Source: an uncultured Methanoregula sp. (GTDB lineage: Archaea; Halobacteriota; Methanomicrobia; Methanomicrobiales; Methanospirillaceae). Taken from it: a stretch of 64,000 bases of DNA. Positions 8,035-38,466 of the stretch are shown here, piece by piece. Numbering within the stretch: the first letter of the stretch is position 1; every line of letters starts with the position of its first letter. Under the pieces are notes generated by a model, which did not search any database, was not told the origin of the DNA, and saw nothing but the letters and a program-made list of their open reading frames with translations. The position numbers and the translations under genes are program-made. The stretch spans positions 2,514 through 66,513 of the forward strand of contig CAZQGG010000009.1 of the NCBI GenBank assembly GCA_964592875.1, written 5' to 3'.

Positions 8035-9273
8035 ATGTCGTATCTGTCAAAAACGGATCCGGAAATCGCCAATATCATCGAAAATGAACGGCTCCGTCAG
8101 CTCAACGGTCTCGAAATGATCGCCTCCGAAAACCTTGTCTCGCGGGCAGTGCTCGAAGCGATGGGGTCCATCATGACCAACAAGTATGCCGAGGGATACC
8201 CGGGCAAGCGCTACTATGGCGGCTGCGAGTTCCACGACCAGGCAGAGAACCTGGCCCGCGACCGGCTGAAGAAGCTCTTCGGAGCCGAATATGCCAATGT
8301 CCAGCCCCACTCGGGCACCCAGGCCAACATGGCGGTCTATTTTGCGTACATGAAGCTGGGCGAGAAGATCCTCTCCATGAAGCTCAACCAGGGTGGCCAC
8401 CTCTCCCACGGTTCCCCGGTCAGCTTCACCGGTAAGTTCTACCAGGTGGCACAATACGGGGTTGACCCGAAGACCGAGATGCTCGACTACGGCGCAGTCG
8501 CGGAGATGGCAAAGAAGGAGAAGCCGCAGATCATCGTCTGCGGTGCCTCAGCCTACCCCCGTACCATCGATTTCAAGGCATTCCAGGAGATCGCTGACGA
8601 TGTCGGCGCCTACTGTATGGCAGATATCGCCCACATCGCCGGTCTCGTTGCCACCGGCCTCCACCCGACATCGGTCGGTGTCGTGAACTTCACCACAACG
8701 ACCACACACAAGACCCTCCGCGGACCCCGTGGCGGCGCCATCATGTGCAACGCAGATCTCGGCGTGGCTATCGATAAGGCCGTCTTCCCGGGCATGCAGG
8801 GTGGCCCCCTGATGCACACGATCACCGCAAAGGCGGTCTGTTTCGAAGAAGCACTCCAGCCCTCGTTCAAGGAATACAACAAGCAGATCATCAAGAACGC
8901 CAAGGTGCTCGCGGAGACCCTGATGGCAAACGGTCTCCGGCTCGTCTCCGGCGGCACCGACAACCACCTGATGCTCCTTGACTTAACAGAGCAGGGCATC
9001 ACCGGTCTTGAGGCCGAGACCGCACTCGGGAAGGCCGGGATCACGGTCAACAAGAACACCATCCCGAACGAGACCAAGAGCCCGTTTGTCACGAGCGGCC
9101 TGCGGATCGGCACCCCGGCCATCACCTCCCGCGGCATGAAAGAGGCCGAGATGCGCCTCATCGGGAACTGGATTGGAACCGTGGTCAAGGATATCCACAA
9201 CGAAGCGGCCATTAAGGATGTCCACGCCAAGGTCGAGGCAATGGCAAGCCGTTTCCCCCTCTACCCCGAATAA
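8035..9273 (+). CDS. glyA: Serine hydroxymethyltransferase
   Basis: [27 protein letters not shown]-lysine motif [14 protein letters not shown]. Confidence 0.98.
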
Positions 9274-17794: not shown

Positions 17795-17844
17795 ACAACA
17801 GATCCTCCCGTTCAGATATTGATCTGTCTTATTCGATCGGATTG

Positions 17845-17915
17845 TAATATATTGATGATACGGCACCGGTGAAAGGAACTACCGTGAGGGAGATATATTG
17901 AACCCGAAAGGATCA
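17845..17915 (-). promoter_or_regulatory. Shared promoter, copy 1: GGTTCAAT box plus TATA-like TCAATATATTA
   Basis: + strand ATTGAACC at 17897-17904 and ATTGA at 17851-17855, offset 46 bp; same geometry at 21450-21521 and 25643-25714. Confidence 0.7.
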
Positions 17916-18048
17916 TGAATTGGGGGTGCCCGCAGCAATCCCCCATCATTATAAAAAAAATACCAACCTATTTTATCCCACACATGGATACTATGAATAC
18001 CATACCATTCCCGTAACCACGAGGAATGTGTTCCGGGTGATGCACATT

Positions 18049-18816
18049 ATGTCCGACAAACAGACCGTTACCGTTTCAACCGATCCGGCATTCTTAAAAG
18101 AACTGTCTGAATACTTAGAGGTCCTCTCAAACCCGGTCCGGCTGAAGATCCTAAAAGTGATCGAGAAAGAGCCAAAGGAGATCAGCGAGATCGCATCCCG
18201 CATCGATACCAGTTATGCCAATACCAAGAAGCACATCGACCAGCTGGTTGTAATCGGTCTTGTGAAGAAGGAGGCTGGGTACGGCAGGGAGACCGTCAAA
18301 GGAATCCACCCGGTCTGGAAATTCTCCCTCGTTGACGGGGGTATGGAGACCCTGATACGCAACATCGGGGTCTTTTCGAGCATCAACATCCCCATGGGAT
18401 ACGGTGATATCCAGTCACGTATCGAACCGTTGAAAATGGCCGTGCTCGCCGACTCCGGCTCGCAGTACCCCGCCCTGCATCTGGTGGAAGGACCCGCAGC
18501 AGGCAGGACATTTTTGTTGAAGAAGGACCGGGTCAGCCTCGGGAGGATCGACCCGGACTTCCCCGCATCGGCAAAAGAGGGGGACATTGTCCTTCCGGTG
18601 GAATATGCCTCGGTGACCCGGATCACGAAACCCCACGCGGTGATCTTCAGGGCGGAGAAGGAATGGTTCATTGAAGACCGGGGAAGTTCAAGCGGCACGT
18701 ATGTGAATTCAACCCTCATCCCCCCCATGAAAAAGACACCCGTGAAAAATGGCGATATCGTGGATCTGGCCATCGGGGATAGTTCAGCACGATTCCTGTT
18801 TGTTGTACATGAGTGA
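18049..18816 (+). CDS. ArsR-like winged-helix transcription regulator with C-terminal FHA domain
   Basis: N-terminal LEVLSNPVRLKILKVI...EISEIA...HIDQLVVIGLV (wHTH); C-terminal VSLGR...SVTR...PHA...WFIEDRGSSSGTYVN...LKNGD-like (FHA). Confidence 0.88.
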   Translation: MSDKQTVTVSTDPAFLKELSEYLEVLSNPVRLKILKVIEKEPKEISEIASRIDTSYANTKKHIDQLVVIGLVKKEAGYGRETVKGIHPVWKFSLVDGGMETLIRNIGVFSSINIPMGYGDIQSRIEPLKMAVLADSGSQYPALHLVEGPAAGRTFLLKKDRVSLGRIDPDFPASAKEGDIVLPVEYASVTRITKPHAVIFRAEKEWFIEDRGSSSGTYVNSTLIPPMKKTPVKNGDIVDLAIGDSSARFLFVVHE

Positions 18817-20866
18817 CCGACAGATGGTGGACTACGGCGATCCGAAACCGGGTTTATTAAGCATGCACATGAGACCTGCCGTAGTCGCGACCATGTTTCT
18901 TCTCGCTCTCCTCTTCTTCGTTATCCTGCCGGTCTCGGCAACCGTCTACATGTACAACGGGACCGAAGGAACGATCCAGGACCTGATCAACAGTACCAGC
19001 ACGGGAGATTCCATATTCCTCCCAACGGGAATCTATCACGAGAACCTCATCATCGAACATGCTATTGTCTTCGGTGCGCAGGATACGAACAACCCCCCGG
19101 CGGTCGTCACGTCCGGTAACGGTGCCGGGATCATCCTTGCAGCCGATGGGATCACGCTCAACGGGTTGAACCTCTCCGGTACTGCCAGGACCGGGCTTCT
19201 CGTACAGTCCAATAACAACCGGATCAGTGATATCACGGTGCAGGGTTTCAGCAGGGGAATCGAGCTGAATAATGCCGCAGACAATATTTTTTCAGGGAAT
19301 ACCGTTACGAACAACAGTGTGGGGGTCACCGTGGATCGCTCTTCCCGTTCCAATACCTTCTTCTTAAACCGGTTCGACAACCCGGTGAATGTGGCCGGCC
19401 AGTCCGCGGACTCCCAGTGGTCTTCATCCAGGCAGGACTACTCCTATAACGGGAGCAGTTTTACCGGACCACTTGGCAATTTCTGGAGTGCCTATACCGG
19501 GACTGACAGTGATGACAACGGGGTCGGGGACTCCGCCTACCCGGTGCTGGCGGATGCACCCGCTGCCCAATCATCCGGGACAACAGAGACGGGAGACCGG
19601 GCGCCACTCATCCGGTATCCTGTTGCGTATTCCCTGCTCGTGAAGACGACGGTAAGTCCAATGAATTCCACAGGGGGCAGGAGTATGGACAGGCCCGACA
19701 ACCTGCCTGCCCTAGGGGAAAACCTGCAACAGCAGCCCTCGTCCCAGAACCCATCCATCTCAGTGACACCCGGGGGGCAGGGACCGGTATCCAGCGGCAT
19801 TCCATCATCCATCCCGGGAAGGACAACCCCGCCCCCGGGGGGCATGTTCCTCGCCATCCTGCTTGACTTCTGGTGGGTGATTCTTATCGTGGTGATCATA
19901 TCCGTGGTTGTCGGGGTATGGTTCGAACGGAGCCGCAGAAAGGCGCAGCCTGCCACCCATATCGAATATGTGGAGGCCAGTACCACCGCCAATGCAACCG
20001 TAGTGAAGAGACCGGGGACTGGTGGACTGGCTGCCGGGGACTGGAAGGATCAATCGTATTTTGCCGCTCACCTCCCATCGGCTCTGGAGAAGAAATACCC
20101 TGACGCGGAGTATATGGGAGAGGGGGGCGTTGGCCGGGTATTCAGGGCATGGGACACGGGGGAGCAGCGCCCCGTTGCCGTGAAGATCCCGATCCGGTTT
20201 GACGAGATAACAGGTTCGCAGTTCACGAAAGAACTCCATATCTGGCAGGGGCTTCACCACAAAAATATCGTTGAGATGTATGCGGCAAATGTCTTCCCCA
20301 TGCCCTATATCGAGATGGAATATATCGAATCATCCCTTGCCGTCAAGAAATTCCCTCTCGAAACAGAGAGGGCGGTAAAGATAATAACGGGTGTTGCAGA
20401 GGGGCTCCGGTATGCCCATGAACAGGGTATTGTTCACCGGGACATCAAACCGGAGAATATCCTCATCACCGCGGAAGACCTCCCGAAGATCACGGACTGG
20501 GGGCTTGCAAAGGCACTGACGGATACAAAACAGACCGGTCTCATCAGTTTCTCACTGAATTATGCTGCACCGGAGCAGTTAGCCCCGAATATCTATGGCG
20601 AGGCCGGGAAATGGACCGACATCTACCAGCTCGGGGTCCTCTTTTACGAGATGGTGACCGGGAGACTCCCTTTCACGGGTGCCGGCATGGGGGAGATCAC
20701 GCAGGCAATCCTCCACAACACGCCGCTGCCACCGGAACCCGCCGGGAGGAATGCGGAAGCAATTACAGCGATCATTACCAAATGCCTGCAGAAGAAACCG
20801 CAGGACCGGTATACCTCCGTTGCCGACATTCTTAACGACCTCCATCACCTGAAGCCTGAAGAATAA
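18809..20866 (+). CDS. Receptor-type Hanks Ser/Thr protein kinase with extracellular NosD/CASH beta-helix domain
   Basis: Signal peptide; GIYHENLII, NNIFSGN..TNN, GNFWSAYTG.D.DDNGVGDSAY; TM WWVILIVVIISVVVGVWF; GEGGVGRV, VAVK, HRDIKPENIL, TDWGLAK, YAAPEQ, DIYQLG. Start 18809 (overlaps FHA gene) or 18863. Confidence 0.95.
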   Translation: MSDRQMVDYGDPKPGLLSMHMRPAVVATMFLLALLFFVILPVSATVYMYNGTEGTIQDLINSTSTGDSIFLPTGIYHENLIIEHAIVFGAQDTNNPPAVVTSGNGAGIILAADGITLNGLNLSGTARTGLLVQSNNNRISDITVQGFSRGIELNNAADNIFSGNTVTNNSVGVTVDRSSRSNTFFLNRFDNPVNVAGQSADSQWSSSRQDYSYNGSSFTGPLGNFWSAYTGTDSDDNGVGDSAYPVLADAPAAQSSGTTETGDRAPLIRYPVAYSLLVKTTVSPMNSTGGRSMDRPDNLPALGENLQQQPSSQNPSISVTPGGQGPVSSGIPSSIPGRTTPPPGGMFLAILLDFWWVILIVVIISVVVGVWFERSRRKAQPATHIEYVEASTTANATVVKRPGTGGLAAGDWKDQSYFAAHLPSALEKKYPDAEYMGEGGVGRVFRAWDTGEQRPVAVKIPIRFDEITGSQFTKELHIWQGLHHKNIVEMYAANVFPMPYIEMEYIESSLAVKKFPLETERAVKIITGVAEGLRYAHEQGIVHRDIKPENILITAEDLPKITDWGLAKALTDTKQTGLISFSLNYAAPEQLAPNIYGEAGKWTDIYQLGVLFYEMVTGRLPFTGAGMGEITQAILHNTPLPPEPAGRNAEAITAIITKCLQKKPQDRYTSVADILNDLHHLKPEE

Positions 20867-21004
20867 CCCGATCCACGAAAGTACCCCTCGCTGGGGGAGA
20901 TGTTCCGCCAGATTTTGTGGGGATAACCACTGATTTTTCTGAAGGGATCAGGAAATAAAAAAAGGTACTGGGAGTAGTGCCAGAATTTGTTATCAGTGTA
21001 CGGG

Positions 21005-21379
21005 TTATGTACTGCTTGGGGGGGTACCCGAGGGTTTCTCACCGGATGGTGCTGTGCCGTTACCCTGCATGCCACCCGGGGGAGTGCCCGAGGGGCGCGT
21101 ACCGTTCATCTCCATTCCCGCAGGTGGAGTGCCTGATGGCTGGGTACCGTTTGCCTGGAACCCTTCAGGATGTGTACCTGACGGTGTCACGGACTGTTCG
21201 GATGACCCGGTGGAGGCAGATGCCTGCGATGGCGTGTCCTGTGCCTGCACTGATGATGCAGGAGTCGATGCAGCAGATTGCGTGGAAGTACTTCCGGCAT
21301 CGGATGTGCAGCCGGCAACAAAAATTCCCGCAATGAGAATCACTGACGCGACTATTATGATACTGATACTTTTCTTCAT
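21005..21379 (-). CDS. Small Ser/Thr/Pro/Gly-rich lipoprotein with NGTxPSG repeats
   Basis: MKK + hydrophobic stretch + VAGC lipobox; three NGTxPSG units, each followed by a GTPP motif. Confidence 0.8.
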   Translation of the reverse strand: MKKSISIIIVASVILIAGIFVAGCTSDAGSTSTQSAASTPASSVQAQDTPSQASASTGSSEQSVTPSGTHPEGFQANGTQPSGTPPAGMEMNGTRPSGTPPGGMQGNGTAPSGEKPSGTPPSST

Positions 21380-21449
21380 GGAAAATCTCTCCTTTGATAA
21401 TGATCTCCCCGGTGAGGGGATCATCTGTCATCTGGATTGGTCACGGCCC

Positions 21450-21521
21450 ATATATATTCACCATATACAGCCAGTGAAATACTCGGCGGAGATGCGCAAT
21501 AATTGAACCAGCGGGTGTACA
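21450..21521 (-). promoter_or_regulatory. Shared promoter, copy 2
   Basis: + strand ATTGAACC at 21502-21509 and ATTCA at 21456-21460 (TGAATATATAT on - strand), offset 46 bp. Confidence 0.7.
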
Positions 21522-22294
21522 TAATCCGGCGCATTCTCCCGGGTGCCTGGATTAATAAAAAGTGCCTGCGCCGCTATCGGGGACTATCATTACCGTAAAA
21601 AAAGAGACTGACAGGAAACTGCGGATTGACCCGTTTCCTGCCGTGACATGTGCCGGGTATTGAGGGGGCGCTGTGGGCCCCACCCCGGTATTTCCGGCAC
21701 GGGATGAGATCATCAAAAACCCCGGTTGGTATGAGGGATATTGTTGTGCTGCTTTTTGCCTCATCGGGGTTTGTAGGTTGATGGATTGGATAGAATGTCC
21801 TTCTCGGGTTTTTGTACTTCTCCTGAATCCTTTTGCATCCTCATCTAGTCTGGCTGGAGACTATTATACGGGCCCATGGCATGACCATGTGTCCGGTTGC
21901 CCACAGGATACCAGTGACCTGGTGCCTTGCCCAAACCCCTCCTGTTCCAAGGGGAATGCAGATCCTGCAATGGGGTTGGCAAATCAGGTACTGCCACAGA
22001 GCAGATTACTCGATCTTTCAACCACCTCCCAGATCTGATGACTGCCCTCAAGGGTAATCATCCTGCATCACGATATCCGCCCCACCACTTATATTCGGCA
22101 CATGTACTGGGTGAAATATTGCACGATCACCGGGATACATTATACTGGCTGGTCAACATTATCACGGCAGGCCGTTTCCGTCGCAGAATTGAAGGGGGTA
22201 GATCAACCATGCTGGCATATCAGAAAAAAGATTCCGGGGATGGTTTATTATCCACGGGATTACGTGATCCGGTTTTTCGGGCAACCTTCCGGAG

Positions 22295-23530
22295 TTAGTC
22301 GCTCCTCAGCGCATCGATCGGGTCCATGTTCGATGCCTTCCATGCAGGGTAAAGCCCGGAGATCACACAGACCACCAGTCCCACGACCATTCCTGCGGGA
22401 ACGTAGATGATACTGGCCGGGAGGAAGAAGAACTCCGTGGTGCCCATCATCACATCCACGACAGAGTACCCGATGACAACGCTCATCAGTCCTCCTATCC
22501 CCGCCCCTATGATACCGAGAATGAACGCTTCGTAGAGGAACATCCGCCTCACCTCGCCGGTCTCCGTACCGATCGAGAGCAGGATACCGATCTCCTGAAT
22601 CCGCTCATTGACCGACATCATCATCACGTTGAAGATGCTGACGGCTGCAACGATCAGCGAGATCCCGCCGATCGCTAGGCAGAACAGTGTCAGGGTTTCG
22701 AGCGTTGACGAGATTGTATCAAGCTGCGAACTGGCATCGCTGATCCGGACTGCCGGTGTCTTCTCATCCGTATTGAGCTTGGCATCGATCGCCTCCTCGA
22801 TCTCCGTGATCATGTCGGTATCGTCAACGATCACGTTCACCTGATCGTAGACATCCTTACTGCCGTACTGGGCCACGTACCATTCCTTGGTGACCACGAT
22901 CCCGTTGTCGGTGCTCACGCTGTCTGCAACGGTGCCCCGCGTATCAATGATCCCGACCACCTTCACCGAAGCCCGGGATGCTGATGTGGAGCCGTCGGGA
23001 GGACCCTCTGATGCCGAACTGATCTTGATCTTGTCCCCGATCTTTACACCAAGGGATTCAGCAAGGGTATACCCGATGAGCGCTTCGTTGATACCCGCGA
23101 TATTGGTGCCGTTCCCGATGGTCAGAAACTCGGTCACATCATCCGGGTTCATCCCGTAGATCGTGCCCCGTGCCGGGACATTCCCGTACGTGAACTGCGT
23201 ACTGGACGAATAGATCGGGATCACCGTACCGTTCGTCCCCACGGCAGCTTTGATCTTGTTCAGCTGGGTCTTTTTGATGCCAGATTCTTCGGTTGAGGAT
23301 GACGATTGAGACCCGGGAGGTCCCATCCGGACGGCATCGGCAGTGATGACGATGGTGTTCGCGCTCGATGAAAGCTGGTCCTCGACCTGCAGGGACATGT
23401 TGGTCCCGAGCATCCCCATGCACGAGATGGCGACAACACCGATCACAATACCGATGGAGGCCAGGATCGAGCGCGTGAAGTTCAGTCTCACGCTCCGTAC
23501 CGAGAGCTGGAAGAAGATATCGCCAATCAT
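22295..23530 (-). CDS. ABC transporter permease (MacB/FtsX family)
   Basis: RSILASIGIVIGVVAI, MMMSVNERIQEIGILLSIG, SGLYPAWKASNMDPIDALR. Confidence 0.95.
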   Translation of the reverse strand: MIGDIFFQLSVRSVRLNFTRSILASIGIVIGVVAISCMGMLGTNMSLQVEDQLSSSANTIVITADAVRMGPPGSQSSSSTEESGIKKTQLNKIKAAVGTNGTVIPIYSSSTQFTYGNVPARGTIYGMNPDDVTEFLTIGNGTNIAGINEALIGYTLAESLGVKIGDKIKISSASEGPPDGSTSASRASVKVVGIIDTRGTVADSVSTDNGIVVTKEWYVAQYGSKDVYDQVNVIVDDTDMITEIEEAIDAKLNTDEKTPAVRISDASSQLDTISSTLETLTLFCLAIGGISLIVAAVSIFNVMMMSVNERIQEIGILLSIGTETGEVRRMFLYEAFILGIIGAGIGGLMSVVIGYSVVDVMMGTTEFFFLPASIIYVPAGMVVGLVVCVISGLYPAWKASNMDPIDALRSD

Positions 23531-24207
23531 GATTCCACGATCCTTCCGTCATCCAGATGTATCGTGCGCTGTGCATATTCTGCAACCTTCGGGTCGTGGG
23601 TGACAAGGATGACCGTCTTTCCTTCTTTTTGCAGGTTGCAGAGGATCTCCATGATCGCAAAACCAGTCTTGCGGTCAAGGTTGCCGGTCGGCTCATCGCA
23701 GAGGAGGATCTTCGGGTCGTTGACGAGAGCCCGGGCGATCGCGACCCGCTGCTGCTGGCCACCGGAGAGCTGGTTGGGACGGTGGAAGGCCATCTCCCGA
23801 TCGATTCCCACCGCATCGAGCAAGGCGGATGCCCGGCCGGTCGTATCGCGTTTCTTGTACTTCAGGATGAGCGGATACTCCACGTTCTCGTAGGCCGAGA
23901 GGAGGGGGATCAGATAGAACTTCTGGAAGATATACCCGATGGCATCGCGCCTGAGGTGTGTCCGCTCTAAATTGGTCATCTTTGCCACGTCTTTGCCATC
24001 GATATAGAGTTCCCCGGTCGTGGGGACATCGAGGATCCCCAGCTGGTTCATCATCGTTGATTTCCCGGAACCGGACGGTCCCATGATCGCAACGAAGTCG
24101 TTCTCCTTGATATCGAGAGAGACGTGGTTGAGCGCCGTGAAGTCCCCACTCTCGAGGTGGTAGGTCTTGGTGACATCCACCAGGCTGATAAGGGGGGTAT
24201 CGGTCAT
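23527..24207 (-). CDS. ABC transporter ATP-binding protein (LolD/MacB type)
   Basis: GPSGSGKST, LSGGQQQRVAIARAL, LCDEPTGNLD, VTHD; start MTDTPL. Confidence 0.96.
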   Translation of the reverse strand: MTDTPLISLVDVTKTYHLESGDFTALNHVSLDIKENDFVAIMGPSGSGKSTMMNQLGILDVPTTGELYIDGKDVAKMTNLERTHLRRDAIGYIFQKFYLIPLLSAYENVEYPLILKYKKRDTTGRASALLDAVGIDREMAFHRPNQLSGGQQQRVAIARALVNDPKILLCDEPTGNLDRKTGFAIMEILCNLQKEGKTVILVTHDPKVAEYAQRTIHLDDGRIVES

Positions 24208-24217
24208 GTTCGACCCC

Positions 24218-25549
24218 TCACTGCTTCTTGATCTTTGACATGATCCATTTCCGCTTGGTATACGCAACGGCGCCGACAATGATGAGGGCGAACATTGCGA
24301 TGACCGGGTAGAACGAACTGAGGCCACCCTTCGCGCTGGTGATGCTGGAGAGGACGCTGCTCGAAGATGACGACGATCCACCGGGTCCGCCGCTCATGTC
24401 CCCGCCGGGTCCGCCCGTACCGCTCGGGGCACCTGAGAAACTGCCGGAGGTCCTGGTGGAGCTGCCGGTCGTGCTGGCAGAAGGCATGCCCCCGGACTGG
24501 GAGTAGGTCGTCAGATCCACGGTCTTGGTCACCGAGTAGTCGGTACCGGCTGAGTCCTTCCAGTGGATGACCAGCGGGACTGAAGACAGGTCCGTGCAGG
24601 TGAAGGTGACCTCGAAACTGGACGAGTCATCGGAGGCGAGGCTGCCCACGGCATATTCCGGATAGGTACCCGTTCCCTTGGCGGGCAGACCCACCGAGAC
24701 CACAACACCGTTTGCATCCGTGACACCCGTATTGGTGATATCCCCGCTCAGGTCATAGGTAGAACCTGATGAGGTGAGTGCCATGTTATTGATGGTCGGT
24801 ACTGCGGCGTCCTTGGCATTGCCGGGGGTGATCGGCAGGTTTACTGATAATTCACGTTTGACATCCCCGTTCTGGTAGTTGATGTTGAACGTGATATTGG
24901 TCGCTTTGTGGGGTGTGACGGTGAAGGGGACCTCGGTCACACTGTTTGCCGGAATTTCACTGATGAAGGTCACCGAAGGGGTGATATCAGTGCCGCTGTC
25001 TGCGGTCGTGATATAGATACTCTTGAGTGCCCCGTCACGCGGGTTGATCAGGCTTAAGTTGACGGAGGCTGCGCTGTCAACGGTAAAGGTCTCTGGCCGT
25101 GAGGAGATGGCAGCGTGCAGGTCCTCCGAATCCACTTCGAAGGTGATCGGGTAATGGATATTCTTGCCGTCTTTTGTCTCTATGGAGAAGAGGGAGAAGT
25201 AATTGCCATCCATCCCGTTCACGGTTACATCGAATGTATAGGTGATCGAATTCGAGGACCCGAGATAGGAGAGGGTCTGCCACTTGTCCTGGTTCACGAT
25301 ACTGATCTCGTTATTGGCCGCAAGAAGATTCGGGTGGGTGACACCTACCGAGGTGTTGCCATCATTGGTCAGGGTTACACTCACTGATCCTGTCTCATAA
25401 GGATAGAATGTCTCAGGGTTCATGGTGACCGAGGATACATAGACATAGGAGGAGCCTCCATCATTCCGGTTCGTATCGGCACTGACTGGGACTACCGATA
25501 CCATCAGTACCAGCAGGATACAGCTGGTTAACAAATAGTTTAGTTTCAT
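24218..25549 (-). CDS. COG1361-like S-layer/Ig-fold secreted protein with C-terminal TM anchor
   Basis: Signal peptide, SGDITNTGVTDANGVVVS, YAVGSLASDDSSSFEVTF, Gly/Ser-rich linker, TM + KRK. Confidence 0.8.
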   Translation of the reverse strand: MKLNYLLTSCILLVLMVSVVPVSADTNRNDGGSSYVYVSSVTMNPETFYPYETGSVSVTLTNDGNTSVGVTHPNLLAANNEISIVNQDKWQTLSYLGSSNSITYTFDVTVNGMDGNYFSLFSIETKDGKNIHYPITFEVDSEDLHAAISSRPETFTVDSAASVNLSLINPRDGALKSIYITTADSGTDITPSVTFISEIPANSVTEVPFTVTPHKATNITFNINYQNGDVKRELSVNLPITPGNAKDAAVPTINNMALTSSGSTYDLSGDITNTGVTDANGVVVSVGLPAKGTGTYPEYAVGSLASDDSSSFEVTFTCTDLSSVPLVIHWKDSAGTDYSVTKTVDLTTYSQSGGMPSASTTGSSTRTSGSFSGAPSGTGGPGGDMSGGPGGSSSSSSSVLSSITSAKGGLSSFYPVIAMFALIIVGAVAYTKRKWIMSKIKKQ

Positions 25550-25642
25550 GATTTCACGTGTTCCTTTTCTCGGATGAGAGACAATGACCCGGACCGCCGG
25601 GTCTCCCTCGAAATTGTTTGGTAAACTTTACATGATGTCTCT

Positions 25643-25714
25643 CTTATATTGACATCACGGCAGGGGGCCAATTATTGTCAGAAACCGGGATTAATTGAAC
25701 CGGGTGGTTGAACA
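25643..25714 (-). promoter_or_regulatory. Shared promoter, copy 3
   Basis: + strand ATTGAACC at 25694-25701 and ATTGA at 25648-25652 (TCAATATAAG on - strand), offset 46 bp. Confidence 0.7.
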
Positions 25715-25801
25715 TATCATCCGGGCCAACACCGGGGGCGCCCGGTCAGATCGCGGGCTTTAAGCATTCACCCACGAGAACCTGAATAACGGGATTGTGC
25801 T

Positions 25802-36597: not shown

Positions 36598-38466
36598 ATG
36601 CCATCTTCTGATGCTGTTATTCCGGTTGCTCTTGCCATGTATCATTCACCAAGACGGTATGCTTTACTAGTTGGATCTGGTATATCACGGGATACACGTA
36701 TTTTTACAGCTGGAGAAATTACCGATGATCTCATCCGAAAGATTGCTGGTAAAACTTTTAAAGGCAATCAGAAACCGCAAGATTGGTACAATGAAACCAA
36801 GGGTCACTCACCCACATTTACGGGGCTCCTTAAAGAATTTGCACACACTCCTGATGATCGCACAGCAATACTCCGTCCCTATTTCGAACCGATTGAGAAC
36901 GGAAAACCGGTGAAAGTTGAGCCAACACAAGCACATGTAAGCATTGCCCGTTTGGTGAGAGATGGCATTATCTCAATGATTCTTACGACAAATTTTGATC
37001 CTCTTCTCGAAGAAGCAATCAGAAAAGAAACTGGAAAAGCCCCTGTAGTCATTACGCGTGATAGTGATCCGCGATTAATGGAAATCGCAGGAGATCATTG
37101 TCGTATCGTGATGATAAATGGTCGATATCCTAATACAGATTTAAAATTGACCCCTGAGGACCTTGCGGAGTATGTTGACAAGGATGCTGAAATTGCAAGT
37201 TATCTTGATCGAATCTTTTCAGAATATGGGCTTCTCATCTGTGGATGGTCTGGGGAGCATGATTTGGGATTGGTAAAAATTTTAGTTGCCGAACGACCTA
37301 CCCGAAGATTTTCCATTTTCTGGTGTAACCGTGATAGTCCTGAAAAGATTCCGGTTGAGATAAGGTCCAAACTTGCCATATCAATTATCAGAATAGAATC
37401 TGCCAATGAATTTTTTAGCGATTTGGAATCTAGGATTGAACTTTTGAAACGCCATGAAAGAATTTCTCCGCTCACCGTGGAAAGCGCTGTCAAAAAGGTC
37501 AAGGAGGCTTTAAGAGAGCCAAGGCCAGAATTGACTCTTTCAGATCTTGTTCACGAAGAAACTGAACGTGTTTTAACAGAAATTAATCGTTCCGATATTT
37601 TTCCGGAAGGGAATATTGATGGGAAAGCTTGTTTTAAAAGCAGGATAGAAGAGTTAGAGCGTGTAGCCTCACCACTTGCGGCAATGGTAGCAACTATTGC
37701 GTACTACGATGATGGGAATTATACAGATTTGATTACAGAAACTATTGATCGGTTAATCAATCTCCCCGTTATTGGGATTATTTTAACTGAAACACATATT
37801 TCAAACAGACGCTCTGAAATAAACCAATACGTAGACTATTTCCAGCGCTTAAGGCTGTATCCAGCTCTACTCACAGTATATGCATCAGGTATTGCAGCAG
37901 TGCATAAAGGAAATTTTACTAATCTATCAGTAATTCTGGAAAAACCCCGAATGCGGCCGTCCGCCTATAATTCAATTGAACCTGTCGCTTTTTTCGAAAG
38001 AGTGAATATGTGGTACGTTACTGAGACTTATGAGCAATGGATAGTTGATTTTAGCCTCGAACGTTTTGGGAAACGCGGGGATGCTTATTATTATATTACT
38101 AAGGTAATCCAAGGAATTGTCAATCCTCTTATCCCTCATGAGCATTATTATAATGCATCATTTGATATTTTCGAATGCCTCTTTGGTATTTGTTATGTCT
38201 CACAATCACCTATTGATGATCTCAGACGTTCGTATGTTTTATTATCGAGAGTGAAGGTTCTGACAGCAGGATTAGATCAGACAAGGCAAATGCGATTGCC
38301 CTCATCGGTTCTTGAATATTTCCAAGGAATCTCCCCAAAGATATCAAAATCTACGTTCTTTGGGGGAAGTCCTATACAATTCCAAAAGACTCTTGTAAAA
38401 TATTCTGAAAATCAAGGCATTACACCTCCTGAAACGGGAATTTCAGTTCCTAAGGGGGTACTATGA
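36598..38466 (+). CDS. SIR2-like (SIR2_2) domain protein, AT-rich, candidate defence effector
   Basis: YALLVGSGIS, EPTQAHVSIARLV, ILTTNFDPLLEEA, GLLICGWSG; long helical C-terminal region. Confidence 0.85.
   Translation: MPSSDAVIPVALAMYHSPRRYALLVGSGISRDTRIFTAGEITDDLIRKIAGKTFKGNQKPQDWYNETKGHSPTFTGLLKEFAHTPDDRTAILRPYFEPIENGKPVKVEPTQAHVSIARLVRDGIISMILTTNFDPLLEEAIRKETGKAPVVITRDSDPRLMEIAGDHCRIVMINGRYPNTDLKLTPEDLAEYVDKDAEIASYLDRIFSEYGLLICGWSGEHDLGLVKILVAERPTRRFSIFWCNRDSPEKIPVEIRSKLAISIIRIESANEFFSDLESRIELLKRHERISPLTVESAVKKVKEALREPRPELTLSDLVHEETERVLTEINRSDIFPEGNIDGKACFKSRIEELERVASPLAAMVATIAYYDDGNYTDLITETIDRLINLPVIGIILTETHISNRRSEINQYVDYFQRLRLYPALLTVYASGIAAVHKGNFTNLSVILEKPRMRPSAYNSIEPVAFFERVNMWYVTETYEQWIVDFSLERFGKRGDAYYYITKVIQGIVNPLIPHEHYYNASFDIFECLFGICYVSQSPIDDLRRSYVLLSRVKVLTAGLDQTRQMRLPSSVLEYFQGISPKISKSTFFGGSPIQFQKTLVKYSENQGITPPETGISVPKGVL

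Follow-up and report, generated by a model that had tools for sequence, protein, structure and literature searches.

A genus-wide candidate cis-regulatory module at envelope-gene promoters of Methanoregula, probably linked to a wHTH-FHA regulator and a receptor Ser/Thr kinase

Introduction

EmbR of Mycobacterium tuberculosis carries a winged helix-turn-helix (wHTH) of the SARP/OmpR type together with a BTA domain. In archaea, upstream activating sequences (UASs), such as those of Ptr2 in Methanocaldococcus jannaschii and GvpE in haloarchaea as well as the EarA boxes, lie upstream of the TFB recognition element (BRE) and the TATA box of weak promoters and probably aid the recruitment of TBP and TFB. 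The EmbR/PknH/embCAB system (PMC9239209, PMC8636726) is the nearest functional analogue of the locus described here, which lies in a 64,000-nucleotide stretch of DNA (hereafter the window) from an uncultured Methanoregula sp. (assembly GCA_964592875.1, contig CAZQGG010000009.1, positions 2,514 to 66,513 of the forward strand). Promoters of envelope genes at this locus share a module built around the octamer GGTTCAAT, and they surround the genes for a wHTH-FHA protein (wHTH-FHA#1) and a receptor Ser/Thr kinase.

The FHA regulators so far studied in archaea, ArnA and ST0829, are crenarchaeal zinc-finger proteins of the Sulfolobales (PMC5007285, PMC6509490, PMC10470591). Like ArnA/ArnB and ST0829, the Methanoregula locus would use an archaeal FHA protein to couple transcription of surface-structure genes to Ser/Thr phosphorylation. 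Unlike the crenarchaeal ArnA/ArnB pair, in which a zinc-finger protein and a vWA partner form a repression module, the regulator here has a wHTH, and Pfam searches of the proteins scanned (14.8–26.3 kb) returned no zinc-finger or vWA match. In the literature library searched, no paper linked Methanoregula with FHA regulators. Here we report what is, on the evidence of sequence comparison, a new genus-wide cis-regulatory module in Methanoregula, and one that is probably the operator of a wHTH-FHA/Ser-Thr-kinase system.

Results

An octamer recurs at a constant distance from a TATA-like box

The octamer GGTTCAAT occurs on the minus strand at 17904–17897, 21509–21502 and 25701–25694, each time in an intergenic region, and at all three sites the hexamer AATATA (17853–17848, 21458–21453 and 25650–25645, minus strand) begins exactly 51 nt past the first G of the octamer. 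A preliminary description of this DNA had placed the two boxes a constant 46 bp apart in three promoters; the spacing is indeed constant, at 51 nt from first G to first A, and the 46-bp figure is the same distance taken between other reference points. Five further copies of the octamer in the window (17050, 37982, 42321, 53513 and 53563) are all within open reading frames (ORFs) and have no AATATA partner. That the remaining copies are genic and partnerless had been said of four of these, but the list was incomplete: it missed the copy at 37975–37982, inside a plus-strand ORF (36598–38466). The window total of eight copies compares with 2.4 expected, and none of 100 shuffles reached eight.

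The genome-wide search for the box with a spaced TATA-like partner that the preliminary description had proposed covered 2.87 Mb at 54% G+C, with crude ORF calls as gene calls. It returned 121 octamers, 27 of them intergenic. Three exact octamers stand at offset 51 from AATATA and two at offset 52 (C1:365960 and C1:491883), whereas neither offset holds a box with one mismatch anywhere in the genome. Intergenic AATATA hexamers number 315 in 380 kb, counting both strands, and the estimated expectation for pairs at two fixed offsets is ~0.02; the arrangement is far beyond chance.

Two other origins of the shared boxes were considered and rejected. A tRNA T-arm as the source of GGTTCAA is ruled out: none of 12 sites run through ARAGORN gave a tRNA, and the octamer has the sequence GGTTCAAT rather than GGTTCAAAT. 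Nor does AATATA serve as the TATA consensus throughout the genome, being unremarkable among upstream hexamers. Indeed, tRNA promoters carry TTTTTAW-type boxes behind purine runs, and the TATA-like box of the three promoters is atypical here. The suggestion that these are weak promoters without a purine-rich BRE needs a correction: a minimal [C/G]AA is kept at the BRE place.

The octamer is one arm of a dyad within a conserved module

Judged by ungapped alignment, GGTTCAAT is not a lone octamer, as had been thought, but belongs to a ~30-bp dyad, GATwwtGTnAACC-N4-GGTTCAATwATC, of which it forms the well-kept promoter-proximal (right) arm. Conservation is poorer in the left arm, which nevertheless keeps a constant register, GAT-N8-(A/C)CC-N4-GGTTCAAT; an ATGWWC half-site previously placed 6–8 bp further upstream is this left arm read out of register. 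Symmetry is perfect (TGAACC-gccc-GGTTCA) in the G004 orthologue of the third window copy. In the complete module of ~75 bp, the 30-bp dyad is followed by 18–19 variable bp and ATTnnACC, then, after a variable stretch of 6 bp, by C(A/G)T and, 5 bp further on, by [C/G]AATATAT, the AATATAT-type box starting 51 (±1) nt past the first G of GGTTCAAT. The matches TTTCACYGG and TGCCGT noticed earlier between pairs of promoters are real, and form part of the ATTnnACC and C(A/G)T elements that the genus has conserved. ATTnnAC(C) resembles a third half-site, oriented like the left arm of the dyad. The alignment does not support a partner arm 4 nt downstream that would make ATTnnACC part of another complete dyad, as the columns there read CCAT.

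We aligned 58 sequences of the genus that had been selected solely by GTTCAAT and AATATA and that represent three non-orthologous promoter classes. Among the columns outside the search pattern, all 58 sequences share the C of (A)CC and also the T of C(A/G)T. Conservation exceeds 90% at GAT, at the AAT past the box, and at the T and C within ATTnnAC. The base preceding AATATA is nearly always C or G, and is always so in an alignment of 21 sequences. Spacer columns are near random and hold almost no information. The spacer between GTTCAAT and AATATA measures 43 nt in 46 of the sequences, 42 nt in 8 and 44 nt in 4.

The module is conserved across the genus

Conservation in relatives had been set beforehand as a test. 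At 40 Methanoregula loci containing wHTH-FHA orthologues (66–86% identity), the pattern GTTCAAT-N42-44-AATATA gave 55 matches in 33 loci, all on the strand opposite the regulator, where a uniform model would yield an estimated ~0.05 matches. The matches recur at three places relative to the regulator, namely ~250 bp upstream (c1, the GT39 operon), ~3.5 kb downstream (c2, the lipoprotein gene, sometimes as a tandem pair) and ~6–9 kb downstream (c3, the COG1361-ABC operon). Where c1 fails the strict pattern, its box is often one or two substitutions off (AGTCCAAT, GGTTCACC, AGTTGAAT); c1 also lies upstream of the regulator in G015 (L082). The same pattern had no match in 16 loci of 39–46% homologues from Methanoculleus and others. 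When 41 genomes from the order (25 of the genus and 16 of other genera) were scanned in full, GTTCAAT-N43-45-AATATA was matched 27 times in 14 of the 25 genus genomes and three times in the 16 genomes of other genera, and the reversed control pattern had no match in any of the 41. Read from these comparisons, the module is a genus-wide phylogenetic footprint.

The islands of invariant sequence between diverged spacers rule out an unconstrained remnant of duplication. Adjacency of the units and the occurrence of c2-like promoters in tandem pairs could be taken to mean that the similarity is a functionless leftover of promoter duplication; however, such a leftover would hardly show invariant islands amid near-random spacers in 58 sequences of three promoter classes, with spacing held to ±1 nt, and we give this explanation next to no weight.

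Between species the dyad keeps a constant distance to the GT39 TATA box, whereas its distance to the regulator promoter varies by tens of bp, which argues that the dyad serves the downstream promoter, in the simplest reading as an activator site. A box that belongs to a divergent promoter is ruled out, as this spacing varies and as c2 and a fourth module in the window (module 4, see below) have no divergent gene. A related proposal, in which GGTTCAAT-WAWT is a second, upstream TATA-like core promoter (tandem or divergent) and not a factor site, could draw on the 10-nt direct repeat formed by the distal TTCAATATATCC and proximal TCAATATATCC of c1, and on the location of the c1, c3 and C1a (C1:365943) modules in divergent intergenic regions. 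This proposal conflicts not only with the lack of a divergent gene at c2 and module 4, but also with the conserved left arm (GAT...ACC-N4) and dyad symmetry, which are foreign to TATA boxes, with the distal boxes of c2 and c3, which read CAATTATTG and CAATTAATC, with an orientation that always matches the downstream gene, and with the conserved TATA box that wHTH-FHA#1 has of its own at a variable distance. We consider it very improbable.

Dyads occur elsewhere in the genome

A position weight matrix (PWM) for the dyad, trained on a set that included five of this genome's own sites, gave 13 genomic matches scoring 16 bits or more, against none when the genome was reversed; owing to the symmetry of the dyad, some sites contribute a match on each strand. 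The genome holds ~10 dyads in total, ~6 of them outside the window, mostly ahead of secreted, sequon-rich proteins. In particular, a near-perfect dyad at C8:66651, with CCAATATAT 27 nt past the box, precedes the gene for a PKD-repeat surface protein, and the C1a dyad precedes that for a secreted protein dense in N-x-T sequons and adjoins a second COG1361-FtsX-ABC operon. Further PWM sites are at C1:491866, C7:17301 and C5:100827, the last being a composite palindrome (GGTTCAATGATTGAACC). This composite (C5:100827–100860, GTATAACC-cgga-GGTTCAAT-g-ATTGAACC-gcgg) stands in ~1 kb without a convincing ORF and recurs upstream of the wHTH-FHA homologue of Methanoculleus frigidifontis (L103, ~8885–8915). 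Intergenic AACC-N4-GGTT sites number ~24 in the genome. The original idea of a three-promoter regulon therefore stands insofar as separate units with envelope functions share a site, but it undercounts, given the fourth copy in the window and the ~6 dyads elsewhere.

An excess of ACC-N4-GGTTCAA in three Methanoculleus genomes (12–18 matches versus 0–2 in the control) is not regulatory evidence: the matches are mostly coding (for example, T-A-G-F-K), and only 2–3 are intergenic dyads.

A wHTH-FHA protein is a plausible binder of the dyad

The wHTH-FHA#1 gene (18040–18816, plus strand, within ORF 17920–18816) encodes an ArsR-like HTH_20/HTH_5 domain and an FHA domain, with Pfam matches to FHA at 7.4e-12, to HTH_20 at 1.4e-8 (35 bits; cut-off 27) and to HTH_5 at 26 bits (cut-off 22). 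No curated NCBIfam family reached its cut-off (the ArsR subfamily scored 29.5 versus 55), and the sole match in a PDB sequence search was the FHA protein 1uht (E 0.0014). Orthologues with 68–72% identity are present in 8 genus genomes of the panel. Directly downstream is the gene for a receptor Ser/Thr kinase (18749–20866, plus strand) with a NosD/beta-helix ectodomain (1.5e-21), a transmembrane segment and a Pkinase domain (1e-45). A second wHTH-FHA gene (wHTH-FHA#2) is likewise paired with a NosD-kinase gene at C2:423667–426631, outside the window.

Binding of the dyad by the enclosed wHTH-FHA#1 is plausible on three circumstantial grounds: clustering, the dyads at the promoter of its paralogue, and phyletic pattern. 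First, dyads cluster at both wHTH-FHA loci. Three to four of the ~10 dyads lie within 8 kb of wHTH-FHA#1, an arrangement kept across the genus. Second, the DNA upstream of wHTH-FHA#2 (region from C2:423540) reads GTAACC-gcaa-GGTTATAC-c-GTATAACC-atac-GGTTGAAC; its two tandem AACC-N4-GGTT dyads end 11 nt before the AAATATAAA box of wHTH-FHA#2 and are conserved in G014, G001 and G019. The presumed recognition helix, TSYxNTKKHxDxL, is nearly identical in the two proteins, and the M. frigidifontis homologue has ATAACC-gggc-GGTTCAAT-g-ATTGAACC ~100 bp upstream. Third, modules are present in 14 of the 19 genus genomes with an intact wHTH-FHA gene versus none of the 6 with no copy or a split one, a difference for which a hypergeometric estimate gives p ~0.003 and which is confounded by the incompleteness of metagenome-assembled genomes (MAGs). 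In addition, half-site centres ~12 bp apart would suit a wHTH dimer.

Several of our observations raise the possibility that the site is real but is the target of some transcription factor unrelated to wHTH-FHA, in which case adjacency would reflect conserved synteny of an envelope cluster. Modules of the c2 type are intact in G010 and G014 despite deletion of wHTH-FHA#1 and most of the kinase gene, so a module can persist in the absence of copy #1. Among 12 Methanoculleus homologue loci inspected, all but one lack the dyad, and ~6 dyads are distant from both regulator genes. With lipoprotein-type promoters persisting in G010 and G014, the binder could be the widespread paralogue or another factor; the near-identical recognition helix of wHTH-FHA#2 could explain this persistence. 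Against an unrelated factor stand the dyads of the same core that directly adjoin the TATA box in the promoter of wHTH-FHA#2 in four species, the octamer upstream of one Methanoculleus homologue, the status of wHTH-FHA as the sole DNA-binding gene of the conserved cluster, and the phyletic pattern. We regard an unrelated factor as unlikely.

The deletion in G010 (L058, 7330–7760) joins mid-kinase to the start of the GT39 gene; wHTH-FHA#1, the c1 promoter, the 70-aa ORF and the N-terminal part of the kinase are lost, and the GT39 gene is split into two overlapping frames. As a natural knock-out for distinguishing activation from repression it is uninformative, because the c1 promoter itself is gone.

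Most of the dyad-less Methanoculleus loci carry a palindrome, GATCCGG-gg-CCGGATC, past the TATA box, which makes it a separate candidate operator in that genus. In L102–L117 (~8800–8850), upstream of the homologues, a conserved GTATAAAA box is followed at once by this perfect palindrome.

Modules, leaders and genes in the window

Module 1 (c1) serves the GT39 operon from the minus strand. Its dyad, AATTCATGATCC-tttcg-GGTTCAAT-ATATC (17892–17921; PWM 30.1 bits), is kept in 24 Methanoregula c1 promoters with the consensus tGATatATGATCC-N5-gGTTCAATAtATccc, and its proximal part (17847–17875) comprises CTTTCACC (17875–17868), CGT (17862–17860) and the TATA-like CAATATAT (17854–17847). The distance from AATATA to the start codon is 60, 79 and 101 nt at modules 1, 2 and 3, respectively, and the 60 nt at module 1 would fit a transcription start site (TSS) near 17825. 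All three distances are compatible with predicted TSSs ~25–30 nt past AATATA, which at modules 2 and 3 would fall near 21428 and 25620. The first gene after module 1 is a 70-aa ORF (17794–17582, ATG 17794–17792), followed by the genes for a PMT_2/YkcB_C GT39 protein (17585–15303) and GtrA (15418–14846), all on the minus strand. Divergent from module 1, wHTH-FHA#1 has its own promoter with a TATA box of the generic type, AAAAATACCAACC-TATTTTAT (17951–17979, plus strand), conserved in 6 species. ACCAACC directly before this TATA box resembles a dyad half-site, and GGTTGGT is also found upstream of paralogue #2; the half-site-like ACCAACC hints at autoregulation.

Module 2 (c2; minus strand) has the dyad GATTATGTACACC-cgct-GGTTCAAT-TATTG (21497–21526; 36.4 bits) and a proximal part (21451–21480) with ATTTCACT (21480–21473), TAT (21467–21465) and GAATATATA (21459–21451). 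It precedes a gene (21379–21005, minus strand) for a lipoprotein with many N-G-T sequons. Between them, ahead of the Shine-Dalgarno sequence and the lipoprotein ATG (21379–21377), lies a leader hairpin, GATGATCCCC-tcacc-GGGGAGATCAT (21400–21425, minus strand), which is found in nearly all c2-type leaders (L062–L116) with a covarying inner stem and conserved outer arms. The general form, GATGAYnnCC...GGnnRTCATC, adjoins the Shine-Dalgarno sequence AAGGAGGTGAT, and inner-stem pairs include CCCC/GGGG, TGCC/GGCA and TTCC/GGAA. The 5' arm is often GATCACCTCC, which we take to match the 3' end of 16S rRNA. RNAalifold gave a weak consensus energy, which we attribute to alignment register. The hairpin may be a translational control element.

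Module 3 (c3; minus strand) precedes the COG1361/CARDB-ABC-FtsX operon. Its dyad, GATATGTTCAACC-accc-GGTTCAAT-TAATC (25689–25718), scores 32.2 bits and 19.1 on the other strand, and the proximal part (25645–25672) consists of ATTGGCC (25672–25666), CGT (25659–25657) and CAATATAA, which contains the AATATA at 25650–25645. The operon (minus strand) encodes a CARDB/COG1361 protein (25549–24218, ATG 25549–25547), an ABC ATPase (ORF 24381–23527, the likely start being the Met of MTDTPLIS) and a MacB_PCD/FtsX permease (23530–22295). The earlier gene annotation of the locus agrees with the Pfam assignments.

Module 4 (minus strand) has a degenerate box, AGTATAAT, that matches GGTTCAAT at 5 of 8 positions, and its AATATA offset is again 51. 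The dyad, GATAATGTTGACC-agcc-AGTATAAT-GTATC (22134–22163), scores 15.1 bits, and ATTTCACC (22117–22110), CAT (22104–22102), AATATA (22095–22090) and a leader hairpin (22062–22037) follow within 22037–22117. Downstream there is just a doubtful 58-aa ORF with a TTG start (22021–21845). Promoters of the c2 kind in tandem ~600 bp apart are also present in L071 and L081.

Discussion

We slightly favor a model in which the module is bound by a wHTH-FHA regulator and aids weak promoters of envelope genes under kinase control. In this model, a dimer of the local wHTH-FHA#1 or of its paralogue #2 would sit on the dyad, centered ~55 bp upstream of the TATA box and ~-85 from the expected TSS, and would help TBP/TFB to use the weak promoter, perhaps aided by a further, weak contact at the proximal ATTnnACC close to the BRE, an element that FHA-mediated, phosphorylation-dependent oligomerization could naturally fill. 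Activity would be set through phospho-threonine signals from the adjacent receptor Ser/Thr kinase with its extracellular beta-helix domain. The regulon would comprise surface glycosylation and envelope functions: GT39-GtrA, the sequon-rich lipoprotein(s), the COG1361-ABC exporter, and secreted and PKD proteins elsewhere. We infer activation over repression from position: because its center is ~55 bp upstream of the TATA box, the dyad should be unable to occlude TBP/TFB. For the full circuit, running from the beta-helix Hanks kinase to an FHA-wHTH activator at the ~-85 dyad plus the proximal half-site and on to the envelope regulon, our confidence is tentative and falls somewhat short of even.

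Besides the persistence of modules without copy #1, the dyads far from both regulator genes, the dyad-less Methanoculleus loci, the PWM training set and MAG incompleteness, other points weigh against this model. Most characterized archaeal activators bind beside the BRE. Unlike such BRE-abutting UASs, the dyad stops ~35 bp short of the BRE position on the upstream side, and its spacing is rigid (±1 nt). Moreover, dyads in the genome stand 20, 27, 31, 51 or 52 nt from an AATATA-type box, and the site may not act in the same way at every promoter.

Most proteins of the ArsR family are repressors, and a bound wHTH-FHA might instead repress transcription or anchor a loop that bridges the distal dyad and ATTnnACC/TATA. 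The third half-site-like element 10–15 bp upstream of the TATA box would fit such a role, as would the dyads 11–20 nt from the TATA box at the paralogue promoter and at C8:66651, which are compatible with BRE occlusion. However, a dyad centered ~55 bp ahead of the TATA box cannot obstruct TBP/TFB on its own, no operator covers the predicted TSS in c1 or c3, and the atypical TATA box and minimal BRE-like sequence suggest a need for help. Repression or looping thus appears improbable to us.

We know of essentially no described route from eukaryote-like Ser/Thr kinases to the transcription machinery in Euryarchaeota. Were wHTH-FHA activation under kinase control borne out, the locus would provide the first euryarchaeal pathway from kinase to transcription factor to regulon with a defined operator, in an activator geometry unlike the known BRE-adjacent archaeal sites. 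With its rigid 51-nt spacing and its 30-bp dyad, the module bears on how an archaeal factor can act from a distance on a TBP/TFB promoter, and the target set of GT39/GtrA, sequon-rich lipoproteins and COG1361-ABC points to regulated remodeling of the cell surface in a genus that is a major producer of methane in peatlands. Our findings provide a concrete, testable operator, target promoters and two candidate regulators.

Several features of the module are reminiscent of known operators. As in the UASs of archaeal activators, the dyad is always upstream and on the strand of the gene, 51 ± 1 nt before AATATA; unlike at the Ptr2, GvpE and EarA sites, which usually abut the BRE, the sole element near the BRE position is the half-site-like ATTnnACC. 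As with ArsR/SmtB wHTH dimers on inverted repeats, HTH_20 and HTH_5 pass the Pfam cut-offs and the geometry of the dyad suits; unlike in ArsR/SmtB, a C-terminal FHA domain replaces the metal site, and the putative operator is far upstream, off the promoter. The likeness to EmbR is one of organization: DNA-binding and FHA domains in one polypeptide, a receptor Hanks-type Ser/Thr kinase as partner, gene-linked here, and GT-C-type envelope glycosyltransferases as targets, represented here by the PMT_2/GT39 operon. Unlike EmbR, the regulator belongs to a methanogenic archaeon and would act at a TBP/TFB promoter, its phospho-regulation is putative, its sequence kinship with EmbR is limited to the FHA domain, and Pfam finds in it only an ArsR-type HTH_20/HTH_5 domain and no SARP/OmpR-BTA. 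Because its DNA-binding domain is of another class, the locus may be said to work like EmbR without being a member of that system.

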